Source: Thiohalospira sp. (GTDB taxonomy: Bacteria > Bacteroidota > Bacteroidia > Bacteroidales > UBA12077). From it: a stretch of DNA of 64,000 bases. The translations under genes and the position numbers were made by a program. This document shows, in pieces, positions 2,941 through 48,226 of the stretch. The DNA is taken from the NCBI GenBank assembly GCA_046538755.1, contig JBKHIH010000005.1, positions 3,061-67,060 on the forward strand, given 5' to 3'. Position 1 is the first letter of the stretch, and every line of letters begins with the position of its first letter. Under the pieces are notes generated by a model. The model ran no database searches. It was not told where the DNA came from and saw nothing but the letters and a program-made list of their open reading frames with translations.

Positions 2941-3960
2941 ATGAGCATTACGATATTAGGGATTGAATCATCATGTGACGATACTTCGGCAGCTATAATT
3001 AAAGACGGTTATATCTTATCAAATTTTATTGCTAATCAGGAGGTTCATAAAGCTTATGGGGGTGTTGTACCGGAGTTGGCATCCAGGGCGCATCAACAAA
3101 ATATTATACCTGTAGTTGACCAGGCGCTAAAAACCGCCAGAGTTAAAAAAGAAGATGTTAGTGCTATTGCATTTACGCGCGGCCCCGGATTATTAGGTTC
3201 TTTACTTGTGGGAACATCATTTGCTAAATCGTTTGCTTTAGCAATGGATATTCCTTTGGTCGAAGTTAATCATTTGCAGGCTCATATTTTAGTACATTTT
3301 ATTAAAGAACTTGAAAAAGAAAATAAACAACCACAATTCCCTTTTTTGTGTTTACTGGTTTCTGGCGGGCATACGCAAATTGTTGTAGTTAAAGACTATT
3401 TGGATATGAAAATAATTGGGCAGACTATTGATGATGCTGCAGGCGAAGCTTTTGACAAATGTGCAAAAGTAATAGGGCTGCCTTATCCTGGCGGGCCGGT
3501 TATTGATAAAAAGGCCAAACTAGGGAATAGGGAGGCGTTTACATTTAATAAGCCTAAAATTAAAGGTTTAGAGTACAGTTTTAGCGGGCTTAAAACATCA
3601 TTTTTATATTTTATCAGAGATGAAATGAAAAAGGATCCTGATTTTGTAAAAAATAATATGAATGATCTTTGTGCCAGTATTCAGTATACTATTATAGATA
3701 TTTTGATGGAAAAGCTGGAAATGGCTTCTAAACAAACAGGGATTAAACAAATTGCTGTTGCAGGTGGTGTTTCTGCTAATTCCGGATTAAGAAATGCATT
3801 ATCGGAGAAAGCGAATATTTATGGTTGGGAAACTTATATTCCAGCATTTAAATTTACAACCGATAATGCAGCAATGATAGCTATAACCGGTTATTATAAA
3901 TTTTTAAATAAAGATTTTGCCTCCCAGGAAATTGCACCGTTGGCCAGATTTACGTATTAG
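2941..3960 (+). CDS. tsaD: tRNA N6-adenosine threonylcarbamoyltransferase TsaD (Kae1/Gcp family)
   Basis: 339 aa. N-terminus MSITILGIESSCDDTS, metal-binding H-x3-H (VNHLQAHIL), GGVSANS motif. Full-length family match by eye. Confidence 0.95.
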   Translation: MSITILGIESSCDDTSAAIIKDGYILSNFIANQEVHKAYGGVVPELASRAHQQNIIPVVDQALKTARVKKEDVSAIAFTRGPGLLGSLLVGTSFAKSFALAMDIPLVEVNHLQAHILVHFIKELEKENKQPQFPFLCLLVSGGHTQIVVVKDYLDMKIIGQTIDDAAGEAFDKCAKVIGLPYPGGPVIDKKAKLGNREAFTFNKPKIKGLEYSFSGLKTSFLYFIRDEMKKDPDFVKNNMNDLCASIQYTIIDILMEKLEMASKQTGIKQIAVAGGVSANSGLRNALSEKANIYGWETYIPAFKFTTDNAAMIAITGYYKFLNKDFASQEIAPLARFTY

Positions 3961-3992
3961 ATTTTTTTATTTTTTTAACAAATCTGGAATAA

Positions 3993-4343
3993 TTATTTGT
4001 TCCCTGGTTTATACAATAAAACATTTACGGGATCGATTGTTGCCAAACAACCTTTAGGCATTTCTTTTAATATTGGTTCTATTTGTTGGTAAAAGTTTAT
4101 AATCTTTTCATCTTCGTCAATAATTTCAATAACCATGGGGAGTTTTTCTGTTAATTCCCAGAATTTGGATGAATGAATTACAGAGCTGGCGCCAAATCCT
4201 AATACTCCACGAAGTACAGTAGCTCCGGCCAGATTTTGTTCCTTTGCCATATAAACAATCTTTTCATATAACAAGTCACCGGAAATACGATCAGTACTAC
4301 TCACAAATATCCTTAATAATTTGTTAATCTTATTGTTTTGCAT
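3993..4343 (-). CDS. DUF190 (PII-like, UPF0166) protein, CrcB-associated
   Basis: 116 aa. LRGVLGFG-type core. Its ATG overlaps the crcB stop by 1 nt (TAATG on the minus strand), the usual crcB partner arrangement. Confidence 0.8.
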   Translation of the reverse strand: MQNNKINKLLRIFVSSTDRISGDLLYEKIVYMAKEQNLAGATVLRGVLGFGASSVIHSSKFWELTEKLPMVIEIIDEDEKIINFYQQIEPILKEMPKGCLATIDPVNVLLYKPGNK

Positions 4344-4717
4344 TACAATATTTTTGAAAGATTATAACCTAAATATACAAAAAGAAATGCTAAAAAAACA
4401 CTTAAAGCGGTATAAGCAAATATACCCTGAAAATTAGCATTACGCATCATTAATAAATTTTCACCTGCAAAAGTTGAAAAAGTAGTGAATCCACCACAGA
4501 AACCAACCATTAAAAACATACGCATTTCCAGGCTTAAAAGAATGGAGCGGTCGGCAATGCCTGTTAATAGCCCCAGGAAAAAGCTGCCGGTTATATTAAC
4601 CAGTAAAGTACCTATGGGAAGGGTTGAAAGTGCAGGTATTAAATTTATTTTTGATATGTAATAACGGGCAATACTTCCTAAAAATCCGCCAAAACCAATA
4701 AACAGGGCTATTTTCAT
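4343..4717 (-). CDS. crcB: Fluoride ion channel CrcB/FluC
   Basis: 124 aa, four TM segments. GFGGFLGSIARY and GFCGGFTTFSTF motifs are typical of CrcB. Confidence 0.9.
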   Translation of the reverse strand: MKIALFIGFGGFLGSIARYYISKINLIPALSTLPIGTLLVNITGSFFLGLLTGIADRSILLSLEMRMFLMVGFCGGFTTFSTFAGENLLMMRNANFQGIFAYTALSVFLAFLFVYLGYNLSKIL

Positions 4718-8280: not shown

Positions 8281-8417
8281 GTAGGCTTTAAATAAAATGT
8301 AACCTTACGCAACCTTTTTGTTTTTCTTTACATCTTAACAAAGTGGCATGAAAAAATAAGCAATACCCTAACCTAAATATCGATACTGTAAATTTTGCAG
8401 TATTTTTCAAAGACTGG

Positions 8418-8443
8418 AGCGGTGCGTAAGCGCCGCTTTTTTT
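8418..8443 (+). terminator. Strong intrinsic terminator with no coding gene immediately upstream
   Basis: 8-bp stem AGCGGTGC / GCGCCGCT (one G-U pair) closing a GTAA (GNRA) tetraloop. Followed by T7 (8437-8443). Confidence 0.7.
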
Positions 8444-8493
8444 ATTCGAACAATCAATAATTATTTTTTGTTACATGGTAAAAAGTGTAAATT

Positions 8494-46129: not shown

Positions 46130-46171
46130 AAAAAAGGCGAAACTGATTAATCGGTTTCGCCTTAATTTTTT
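46130..46171. terminator. Bidirectional intrinsic terminator between convergent genes
   Basis: GGCGAAACTGAT / ATCGGTTTCGCC hairpin (46136-46161, one G-U pair). It is flanked by A6 upstream (a T-run for the minus strand) and TTAATTTTTT downstream. Confidence 0.75.
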
Positions 46172-46183
46172 AGTTTAATTTTG

Positions 46184-46396
46184 TCAATCTGCCTTATTCA
46201 TTGGACAGGTGCTAAATCCAAAAAGTGCGTATAATCCGCAAAAATTAATAATTGCTGTTAGCAATAAAATTGCTCCAACAATAAGTAATACAATTCCTAA
46301 AGTTCCGGTAATTACATTGGTAAAATAAAGAATACCAATAATTAGTGCAATAATAATACGAATAACTCTGTCGGCCACTCCAATGTTCTTTTTCAT
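46184..46396 (-). CDS. DUF2892 (YgaP-like) small membrane protein
   Basis: 70 aa. GVADRVIRIIIALIIG...CGLYALFGFSTC is the family pattern. Confidence 0.8.
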   Translation of the reverse strand: MKKNIGVADRVIRIIIALIIGILYFTNVITGTLGIVLLIVGAILLLTAIINFCGLYALFGFSTCPMNKAD

Positions 46397-46939
46397 AGTT
46401 CTGGAATTTGATTTTTAGTTGTTTATTATTTGTGATTATAACAATGAAAAATAGGATTTGTTTAGCCTGTAGAAATAATTAATTAACAAAAAGGTTTTGG
46501 TAAAACTGGTTTGGTTGAAAAGTGGCAGTAAATGGGCCACTGATTCAATAAAATAAGTGGCAGGAGGCAGTAGCAGAACTCCTTCGCTTCGCAATCGCAC
46601 CCTGCCGCTGAAGCTTTAGCGTAAGCGTCTAAAGCTAATAGCGAACGCGGTGAAGCTACGGTGATTAAAAGTGGAAGTAAGCAATATGCAAGTTTCAAGT
46701 ATCAAAAAGGAGATTTACAGTTATTAGTTTAATTTTTAAGTTAGAAAGTTGACAATAAGCAGTTTATCAGTCATAGGCAAGCGGCAGTAGGCAGTTTACA
46801 TGCTGTAGGCAGGCAACAGTTAAAAAGTTTTGAGTTCTGAGTTTAAAGCAGCATTGAGCAGCAGCAGGAGGCTAGAACAGTCAAAGCAAAATGTTATTAC
46901 TTAACAAGTAAACAAATTAAACAATAAACCAAATTCAAT
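46397..46939. other. ORF-free GC-rich, repeat- and hairpin-dense noncoding island (candidate structured RNA or protein-binding array)
   Basis: Hand count gives 60/110 G+C at 46556-46665 and 50/108 at 46773-46880, against roughly one-third in the flanks. It carries multiple short repeat families and strong hairpins (see findings). The only listed ORF (46483-46698, minus) is low-complexity. Confidence 0.5.
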
Positions 46940-48226
46940 TTATCCATTCCAAAACTTAAAAATATCTTCAACCGTTTCTCTCTCCTTAATCAATGAATAA
47001 TCGTTATCTTCTTTACCAATAATTTTAGGAAACAACCGGCTTACATATTTCGACCACATTCCAAAAGTATATCCGCCCGTATCGTGAATAACAAGATAGT
47101 CTCCTTCAACGGCTTCGGGTAATTGTACATCGCGTGCTACAATATCGTTTGCAAAACATAGCGGGCCTGCAATATGATATTTTTTTAAGGTTCCTGATTT
47201 TTTAGGATTCCCTGCTTTATCTAACAGCGAAATCTCATGAAACCACTGCCCCGGATTTAAGCATTCTCTTAAAAGCAAATCGGCTCCTGCATGGATAATA
47301 AGGGTATTATCATTGGGATAATGTTTTACATATTCTACTTTGGTTATGATGTAACCCGCATTAACATGTAAATACCGCCCAAATTCTGTAATAAGTTTTA
47401 TATCTTCAAGCTTATATTTTTTTAGCAGGTTTTGTAACTCCTGTCCATAAATTTTTATGTCAGGGGGATATTGATTATGATGATAAGAAACTGGAAGCCC
47501 GCCGCCAATGTCAAGAAATTCAACTTTTCTGTTTTCGCTTTCTAATTTCTTATTTATTTCTTTAATGATTTGCAGCCCTTTTTCAATACCATTAAGTAGC
47601 AATTGCATCTCACATCCCTGTGAGCCAATATGCATGTGTATTCCTTTAAGCCATTCGTAATAAAAGAAATAATCGATAATTCTATCACTGTAATGCTTAA
47701 TCGGTACACCAAATTTTGAGTATTCACCGGCTAACGAAGTGGATGCTATTTTTCCATGGCCAACCTGAGGATTAATTCTTAATCCAATTAAGCTTTTGGA
47801 TACAATCTCTTGCTTTAATTTAACAATCCTGTCCAATTCCATCAATGAATCGGCATTAATATAGATATGGCTTTTGAGTGCTTGGGTTAATTCTTCGGTT
47901 GTTTTGACCGGAGAATCGAAGATAATCTGATCGCTACCAAATCCTGTTTTTTGTGCAAGGAACAATTCACCTTCAGAAGCTACTTCTGCACCTAAACCTA
48001 AAGACTTAATAGTTTTAAGGATTTTTACCAGCGGATTGGCTTTAACAGCAGATGTATGTAAAGTGCTTTCAGGAAAGGACTCTTTGAGTTCTTTTATTTT
48101 TACTTTTAAAAAATCATTATCATAGAAAATAGTGGTTGTGTCCTTTTCAGGATTGATAAGTCCTTGGTTTATACACTCATTGAATGATTGGGCAATTGAT
48201 TTTAAAGGGATAAAATGATTCATCAT
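46940..48226 (-). CDS. Type III PLP-dependent decarboxylase (Orn/DAP/Arg decarboxylase family 2)
   Basis: 428 aa. PLP-lysine context HTSAVKANP, glycine loop LDIGGGLP, substrate-site IAGPLCFANDIV. Confidence 0.85.
   Translation of the reverse strand: MMNHFIPLKSIAQSFNECINQGLINPEKDTTTIFYDNDFLKVKIKELKESFPESTLHTSAVKANPLVKILKTIKSLGLGAEVASEGELFLAQKTGFGSDQIIFDSPVKTTEELTQALKSHIYINADSLMELDRIVKLKQEIVSKSLIGLRINPQVGHGKIASTSLAGEYSKFGVPIKHYSDRIIDYFFYYEWLKGIHMHIGSQGCEMQLLLNGIEKGLQIIKEINKKLESENRKVEFLDIGGGLPVSYHHNQYPPDIKIYGQELQNLLKKYKLEDIKLITEFGRYLHVNAGYIITKVEYVKHYPNDNTLIIHAGADLLLRECLNPGQWFHEISLLDKAGNPKKSGTLKKYHIAGPLCFANDIVARDVQLPEAVEGDYLVIHDTGGYTFGMWSKYVSRLFPKIIGKEDNDYSLIKERETVEDIFKFWNG

Follow-up and report, generated by a model that had tools for sequence, protein, structure and literature searches.

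The 543-bp gap at 46397-46939 of the window, by which we mean the whole 64-kb stretch (64,000 nucleotides) of an uncultured Bacteroidales contig that was analysed, is in our judgement, held with about even confidence, a hypervariable, fast-evolving non-coding spacer or 3' UTR in which constraint is visible at the two ends only. An earlier note on this DNA had described a GC-rich island packed with short repeat families and hairpins, and had proposed a structured RNA or UTR, an array of protein-binding sites or a decayed piece of foreign DNA; this interpretation is partly supported by our analysis. Its coordinates, G+C values, motif positions and hairpins stand, while the significance that it gave to the repeat families does not.

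The gap and its composition

The gap separates two genes of the same strand:

46184-46396, minus strand: gene for a YgaP-like/DUF2892 membrane protein of 70 aa; right-hand neighbour, the gap at 46397-46939
46940-48226, minus strand: gene for a PLP decarboxylase of the Orn/DAP/Arg type, the other neighbour of the gap
46556-46665, strand unassigned: GC-rich island, 54.5% G+C, found by G+C scan and, since homologue searches came back empty, private to the lineage

The decarboxylase gene is preceded by a beta-lactamase-family gene, and the sequence of the window is identical to contig 614 of Logan SRR29060565. As had been claimed, the gap is the longest non-coding stretch of the window; the sole other ORF-poor region, at 1-2940, is a 974-aa open frame that runs off the left end. 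The G+C contents quoted earlier are also right: the window averages 32.3%, whereas 46556-46665 has 54.5% and 46773-46880 has 46.3%. The former is the window's richest 110-nt stretch, and 55% is reached nowhere else at that length. Elsewhere between genes of the window G+C is 16-32%, and the local GC peaks of these other intergenic regions are mostly canonical terminators, each a hairpin plus a T-run, leaving the island as the only intergenic GC peak of another kind.

Relatives share only the ends of the gap

The order of decarboxylase and DUF2892 genes is preserved in more than ten contigs of related uncultured Bacteroidales (GTDB MAGs, JGI, ENA and Logan), and the length of the gap between them varies by lineage (82, ~150, 181, 251, 381, 543, 564-572 and 620 nt):

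82 nt: relatives whose decarboxylase is 61% identical
about 150-250 nt: relatives whose decarboxylases are 70-80% identical
381 nt: L050
543 nt: the window
564-572 nt: L002 and L014
620 nt: L003, L009 and L010

The window and L014 agree at 89-95% in the neighbouring genes and between them, yet the central ~300 nt of the gap are unalignable; the only common parts of the two middles are short ACTGCC-rich modules, which stand in a different order. No homologue of the GC island was found in any relative, including genomes whose flanks are 89-95% identical, and the similarity between the island and a GC-rich module of L014 and L018 is not significant. A small conserved ORF (26-33 aa) in that L014/L018 module was considered and set aside on reading the sequences, since L050 and L003 carry it in shortened form and the window does not have it. 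Because relatives align only at the ends of the gap, we regard the island as private to its lineage and as lying in a hot spot of indels and insertions.

Several length changes can be followed in this hot spot. L014 and L002 carry a block of ~220 nt (a 221-nt indel) missing from L018, bounded, in the comparison of L014 with L018, by direct repeats GTGATTAT / GTGATTCT-CTAG. In L017, whose gene is 98% identical to that of L014, the sequence turns unrelated past 'gactgttgcttg'. At one equivalent site, past ...CTCGCA, three lineages carry three unrelated sequences: L003 has an insert of ~190 nt with 21-nt inverted ends, which is MITE-like; L050 has a 41-nt GC-rich palindrome, a clean 13-bp hairpin with TCGCAAA (7 nt) on both sides; and the window has its GC island. 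Several short-read contigs end inside the gap, an observation that could equally reflect strain variation.

Conservation of the gap is limited to ~85 nt past the decarboxylase stop codon and ~150 nt beside the DUF2892 gene, which contain the following features:

46397-46434, minus strand: putative A-rich 5' leader of the DUF2892 gene, conserved in alignments with all relatives
46435-46464, minus strand: promoter-like site, hexamers TAAACA and TATAAT 18 nt apart, the latter in the context TG-n-TATAAT
46484-46499, minus strand: upstream block, reading AAAACCTTTTTGTTAA on the gene strand and matched in inverted form by the TTAAACAA block
46853-46939, minus strand: segment past the stop codon, 93% identical to L002 and common to the long-gap clade

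The promoter-like site scores 10/12 with TG. In an alignment of the DUF2892-proximal end, nine relatives have TTAAACAAAT and TTGTTATA without a single change; TTGTTAA within the upstream block is nearly invariant among relatives, and the AAAACCTTTTTGTTAA block may, from its sequence and position, be an operator or UP-like element. A motif search agrees with the earlier note that the TAnnTTTG promoter box is absent from the gap. The promoter-proximal ~150 nt alone are common to the relatives and the island is absent upstream of their orthologues, so a search for a riboswitch or conserved cis-regulatory leader on this comparison was negative.

At the other end, the post-stop segment contains an 8-9-nt microsatellite at 46903-46935 (TRF period 9/17) whose copy number varies by relative, with four copies in L014; TRF on the gap shows only this microsatellite, and hence no CRISPR or other tandem repeat array. 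We had considered the post-stop segment to be better conserved than synonymous sites, as L014 and L018 share 93.5% of its positions and 75% of third codon positions. This claim is withdrawn because neighbouring loci of L014 and L018 are 92-97% identical, making the decarboxylase gene the outlier.

One strand-specific motif is in excess

All motif positions quoted in the earlier note check out, and its 8-14-nt repeat families are nonetheless at chance level against dinucleotide-preserving shuffles: the repeated 8-mers and 9-mers of the gap are matched by 340 and 605 of 1000 shuffles, respectively, and its best self-alignment scores 24 against 22.5 +/- 2.5 in shuffles. What is statistically notable in the gap is only the GGCAG/GCAG motif, together with a general redundancy of 6-mers that 2 of 1000 shuffles reach. 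On the plus strand GGCAG occurs six times, against 1.0 expected locally and 0.3 by the window-wide rate, a count reached by none of 1000 shuffles; GCAG occurs 12 times against 1.35 expected. The complements of both words occur just once each, making the excess strand-specific. On the strand of the flanking genes the motif reads ACTGCC/CTGCC.

46524, 46559, 46566, 46783, 46790 and 46808 (46524-46812), plus strand: the six GGCAG copies, from word counts and shuffles

All four long-gap lineages show the ACTGCC excess, and none of the short-gap ones does. As the copies are related by descent, this recurrence is weak evidence of selection. That four lineages have kept the excess despite turnover could, however, come from selection instead of ancestry.

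Repeat searches also placed ACTGCCRCTTT-like sites 114 and 110 nt apart in the window and 111, 110 and 115 nt apart in L014, and the families spaced by 110-114 nt are 17-20-mers of 75-88% identity. The repeat search, together with a MAFFT alignment in which the ACTGCC motif block is the best-preserved part of putative ~111-nt units, hinted at tandem 111-114-nt units that would be decayed copies of the promoter unit. Matches by nhmmer had E of at least 0.58, and neither self-alignment of the window nor autocorrelation supports such units, which remain a hint. Pairs of ACTGCCRCTTT 90-118 nt apart gave 15 matches in viral contigs, mutually unrelated in sequence and close to a rough chance estimate of ~12-20 that assumes a collection size. 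A sigma-54 (-24/-12) reading of TGGCAG was rejected by eye, as the spacing and the -12 element misfit and the L002 site is not conserved.

Hairpins precede the DUF2892 promoter on the gene strand

Both hairpins of the earlier note exist, with local folding z-scores of -2.2 to -3.1, as does the TTTT that it placed after the minus-strand hairpin. Folding of the region as a whole is unremarkable (z of -1.2 on the minus and -1.9 on the plus strand). The predicted structures and the tract before them are:

46515-46548, minus strand: hairpin H2, inner AGUGGC/GCCACU and outer UUGAA/UUCAA, then UUUU; -7.6 kcal/mol, z -2.8
46556-46609, minus strand: hairpin H1, a long imperfect stem-loop GGCAGGG...UCCUGCC, then UAUUUUAUU; 9-nt arms, 89% complementary
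46612-46636, strand unassigned: 25-nt hairpin AGCTTTAGCG-TAAG-CG(T)CTAAAGCT; 8/8 complementary, z -2.3 on the plus and -3.1 on the minus strand
46667-46852, minus strand: variable C-rich, G-poor stretch with ACTGCC/CTGC motifs; C:G ~2:1, z +0.24 on the minus strand

The 25-nt hairpin at 46612-46636 is an imperfect palindrome of 8+2 bp with one bulge, within the 20-40 nt by which REP/BIME palindromes are recognised. Over 46752-46900 the gene strand likewise has C:G of ~2:1 with no structure predicted, and the order of the sequence in 46667-46852 is rearranged relative to L002 and L014.

Scanning both strands of 46397-46939 for intrinsic terminators (GC-rich stem of at least 5 bp, loop of 3-8 nt and at least five T in the next 8 nt) called no site. 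H2, whose 6-bp stem closes a 9-nt loop and is followed by just four U, and H1, a 54-nt interrupted stem, both fall outside these limits and are much weaker than the canonical terminators of the window, such as those at 46134-46163 and 8410-8445, which have stems of 9-13 bp and six or more T. The likeness of both hairpins to terminators is loose, and H2 is a weak terminator-like element. Reading the plus strand of the gap by eye revealed no hairpin followed by a T-run.

Database and copy searches

The statement of the earlier note that no RNA family could be named holds: Rfam at gathering thresholds gave no match in the whole window, and Rfam 15 at permissive E gave only matches of E 5-9 for the gap, with 9-12 bits against thresholds of 50-65. 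The gaps of five relatives yielded nothing in Rfam, and ARAGORN predicted no tRNA or tmRNA genes in the window. By blastn the gap had one 40-nt chance match among plasmids and no match among phages. A second copy of any part of it was sought without success in the 64-kb window and the related loci, 371 kb overall, and the same 371 kb yielded no further copy of the L003 and L050 inserts.

That the gap holds no credible ORF, as claimed earlier, is right insofar as no reading frame has homologues or conservation, although minus-strand ORFs of 71 and 54 aa do exist. Translated in six frames, the gap had no Pfam match at E<=1. When the 71-aa ORF was compared by HMMER with all 1.84 billion protein representatives, a single match appeared, a spurious one to a domain-free repetitive protein, made up of short repeated stretches that are largely outside the island. 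The plus strand of the gap is full of stop codons.

A model for the spacer

Because the coherent signals (hairpins, U-rich tracts and C-rich tract) occur on the gene strand only, we read the middle of the gap as a 3' UTR or spacer of the decarboxylase operon, and a transcribed 3' UTR or intercistronic spacer with hairpins is plausible. The middle would probably be transcribed from that operon, either as a long 3' UTR or as an intercistronic spacer. Past the stop codon such a transcript would carry first the C-rich, G-poor, unstructured tract and then two GC-rich hairpins, each with a U-rich run: H1 (46609-46556) with UAUUUUAUU, then H2 (46548-46515) with UUUU, the DUF2892 promoter lying ~50 nt further on. 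In this position, just upstream of the promoter, H1 and H2 might serve as weak terminators, as stabilisers of the 3' end, or as both. We infer the strand, RNA ends and termination of this putative transcript from the sequence.

The ~300-nt middle may have been built and rebuilt through small duplications and reshaped by deletions whose end points are short CTGCC/CTGCTGC-rich direct repeats, with GC-rich palindromes inserted or locally generated at one recurrent site. The ACTGCC excess would then most simply be a legacy of duplicated units and a substrate for further slippage. The extra 300 nt are not needed for termination, because relatives manage with a gap of 82-250 nt, and much of the middle may be tolerated rather than selected.

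Alternative explanations

The island could itself be a small mobile palindrome, akin to REP, MITE or GC-cluster elements, with a preferred target site, like the L050 and L003 inserts, a reading that we consider doubtful. Three unrelated inserts at an equivalent position past ...CTCGCA speak for it, as do the L050 hairpin of 13 bp with its 7-nt direct repeat TCGCAAA, the 21-nt inverted ends of L003, the island's status as the sole non-terminator intergenic GC peak in the window and the several short-read contigs that break within the gap; however, these breaks could as well come from strain variation, the window island has internal hairpins only, with neither terminal inverted repeats nor a flanking duplication, and further copies of the three inserts were looked for in vain in 371 kb, as were counterparts in plasmids and phages. 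As to the related proposal of the earlier note, decayed foreign DNA, no frame retains a coding remnant, and no source sequence turned up among plasmids and phages. Small insertions of unrelated sequence do occur at this site in relatives, which would suit a palindrome that was either inserted or generated in place. Very improbable, in our estimate, is an inverton bracketed by AT-rich inverted repeats at 46404-46431 and 46909-46936. Inverted pairs do occur between the gap ends in the window, L014 and L003, with the promoter just inside the DUF2892-side arm, but their scores are at chance (matched by 81 of 500 shuffles for the window and by 330-343 of 500 for L014 and L003), in keeping with the earlier note, which had seen no long terminal inverted repeats; moreover, all eight full-length assemblies (8/8) have a single orientation and no recombinase gene adjoins the gap. 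We give as little credence to a decayed protein-coding fragment: the 71-aa minus-strand ORF, with a TTG start, does span the island, but it is not conserved in L002, L014 or L003, and stops on the plus strand, the lack of Pfam matches in six frames and a lone spurious HMMER match stand against a pseudogene.

The remaining alternatives assign a function to the middle. A discrete conserved ncRNA, one form of the structured RNA that the earlier note had proposed, is not borne out, given the lack of an Rfam match, the absence of the island in all relatives and weak folding z-scores; because the island shows no conservation outside this genome, which that note had taken as its own yardstick, little is left of this reading. 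A regulatory RNA that evolves fast, whether an independent sRNA or one derived from the 3' UTR, whose ACUGCC/CCUCC motifs titrate a protein or pair with targets, seems unlikely to us. It would account for a motif excess that is strand-specific, significant and shared by the four long-gap lineages but by no short-gap one, for a motif block that is better preserved than the rest of the putative units and for a motif-bearing tract predicted to be unstructured; in AT-rich genomes, besides, ncRNAs are enriched among intergenic regions that are long and GC-rich (PMC6429828, PMC8723152). Against it, the gap has no recognisable promoter for such an RNA and no Rfam match, the sequence is not conserved, the motif copies share descent so that their recurrence is not independent, and no partner protein is known. 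Most Bacteroidota are not known to have CsrA or Hfq. The narrower version, in which the middle would be a lineage-restricted decarboxylase 3' UTR or an sRNA processed from it, with single-stranded ACUGCC/CCUCC arrays and the GC hairpins as its 3' end, we hold to be quite improbable; by analogy it would amount to the logic of CsrB-like or C-rich-seed sRNAs in Bacteroidales that lack the classical partners, something of a long shot. We see similarly little likelihood in an array of ACTGCCRCTTT sites, one every ~110-115 bp, to which a regulator acting on the DUF2892 promoter would bind. The spacings (114 and 110 in the window, 111, 110 and 115 in L014), the single orientation throughout, the position upstream of the conserved DUF2892 promoter and the fact that ACTGCC/GGCAG is the only statistically real motif, present in the long gaps of four related lineages, are what such an array would produce; yet the ~110-nt periodicity is not significant by autocorrelation, the motif is missing from short-gap relatives with the same promoter and an 88-95% identical protein, no candidate binding protein can be named and the motif copies share ancestry. 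The readings as conserved structured ncRNA, riboswitch, inverton or pseudogene are thus not supported, and a hypervariable spacer or 3' UTR remains our preferred explanation.

Significance and comparison with known systems

If the hypervariable spacer is the true explanation, its significance is mainly one of caution: in an AT-rich genome, a long, GC-rich stretch between genes with many short repeats and hairpins can arise by local duplication, deletion and palindrome insertion without being a conserved RNA gene, and comparison with ~90% identical genomes quickly settles whether it is a conserved RNA gene. The locus would also be a small, clean example of an intergenic hot spot of indels and insertions, with three unrelated inserts at one site in sister lineages. 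It would gain in significance only if the inserts belonged to a family of tiny mobile palindromes scattered through Bacteroidales, or if the ACTGCC-rich transcript were a discrete regulatory RNA.

Screens for ncRNAs in GC-rich intergenic regions select long regions that are markedly GC-richer in AT-rich genomes and accept candidates only with conservation and covariation across homologues (PMC6429828, PMC8632094, PMC8723152). The gap falls within the first, selective step, but its GC-rich part is without any homologue found. Like the sponge RNAs CsrB and RsmZ, the gap has copies of a short motif on one strand, fast turnover and variable copy number; unlike in these RNAs, which are discrete transcripts that show their motifs in hairpin loops to a cognate binding protein, the motif is ACUGCC rather than A(N)GGA.

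A genome with REP elements has tens to hundreds of them, nearly identical and each with a conserved GTAG/CTAC beside the palindrome, and as 3' hairpins they may stabilise upstream mRNA or weakly terminate transcription. The gap resembles REP/BIME of enterobacteria and pseudomonads in its imperfect GC-rich palindromes, intergenic or intercistronic and placed past a gene, in lineage-specific presence or absence and in 3' hairpins with a possible mRNA-stabilising or weakly terminating role; it differs in that no further copy of the island was found in the 64-kb window or among 371 kb overall and that a lone GTAG lies ~20 nt off the palindrome. The likeness to MITEs resides in the same-site inserts of relatives, that is, the inverted ends of L003 and the 7-nt flanking duplication of L050, whereas the window island lacks terminal inverted repeats, a target-site duplication and, in the 371 kb searched, other copies. 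Like intrinsic terminators, the gap has gene-strand hairpins with U-rich runs between a gene end and the next promoter, although H2 (6-bp stem, 9-nt loop, four U) and the interrupted H1 both fail the terminator scan. By analogy, the spacer would act in the manner of REP-type hairpins or leaky terminators while being a member of neither family, and the evidence points to a gap whose sequence is real and statistically unusual, yet ordinary in kind: a hypervariable spacer with lineage-specific GC-rich hairpins.

Contig assignment

The proteins encoded at 46184-46396 (DUF2892) and 46940-48226 (the PLP decarboxylase) are identical to NCBI MFP4023294.1 and MFP4023295.1, whose source is a MAG labelled Thiohalospira sp. 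(Gammaproteobacteria). Given that the window contig has 32% G+C, encodes TonB-dependent receptors of the Bacteroidota type that carry CarboxypepD_reg domains, and has close relatives that are all Bacteroidales MAGs, it was probably mis-binned under that label.

A conserved region upstream of DUF2892

Features at the locus:

46435-46499, minus strand: four TTGTTA/TAACAA-type half-sites in alternating orientation, upstream of DUF2892
46134-46163: strong terminator-like hairpin with a 13-bp stem and a plus-strand T-run, located where the TonB-dependent receptor gene and the DUF2892 gene converge
46903-46935 (11288-11335 in L014, a long-gap relative): microsatellite with an 8-9-nt unit, ATTGGTTT / ATTTGTTT, immediately 3' of the decarboxylase stop codon

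The half-sites, ordered TTGTTAA ... TTAAACAA ... TTGTTATA ... TAACAAACAA, are invariant (TTGTTAA nearly so) among the related Bacteroidales contigs compared (L002, L003, L004, L005, L006, L008, L013 and L014), even though decarboxylase identity among these relatives is only 70-87%; the layout resembles that of a promoter with a palindromic operator lying across it, a candidate binding site for a regulator. Because the decarboxylase gene has no downstream terminator as strong as the 46134-46163 hairpin, transcription from its operon may continue into DUF2892. The copy number of the post-stop microsatellite varies among lineages.

Probable rearrangements and insertions in the spacer

Gene order is broken in some relatives: in L011 a long repeat-rich non-coding stretch (3781-4480), including (TAGTAAAA)n, follows the decarboxylase in place of DUF2892, and at 2191-2500 of L040 DUF2892 adjoins unrelated divergent genes. 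The spacer itself differs in further relatives:

L017 2319-2429 and L016 2892-2922: unrelated spacer sequence, running to the contig ends
L003 3394-3586, present also in L009 and L010: insert of ~190 nt with 21-nt imperfect inverted ends
L050 373-428: GC-rich 41-nt palindrome with a perfect stem, CCTGCCAGCCGGTTTACGTGCCGTATGGCATGCAGGCTGGG, with TCGCAAA at each side

The L017 decarboxylase gene is 98% identical to that of L014, yet the spacer beyond 'gactgttgcttg' is unrelated and contains both a box of the TAnnTTTG type and the start of a new ORF (MHKQKTELLNRFFKKEV...); this switch, shared with L016, probably marks a rearrangement or the border of an element inserted there.

The insert in L003, whose inverted ends are CCCGATAACTCCTAAAATCCG / CGGATATTAGGAACTATCGGG, interrupts TTCTCGCA|GAGACAC, a sequence that is unbroken in L018, a relative close to L014. 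No second copy of it was found in 371 kb of window and related DNA; the insert looks MITE-like. The L050 palindrome occupies the same relative site in the spacer as the window's GC island (46556-46665), and the paired TCGCAAA around it resembles a target-site duplication.
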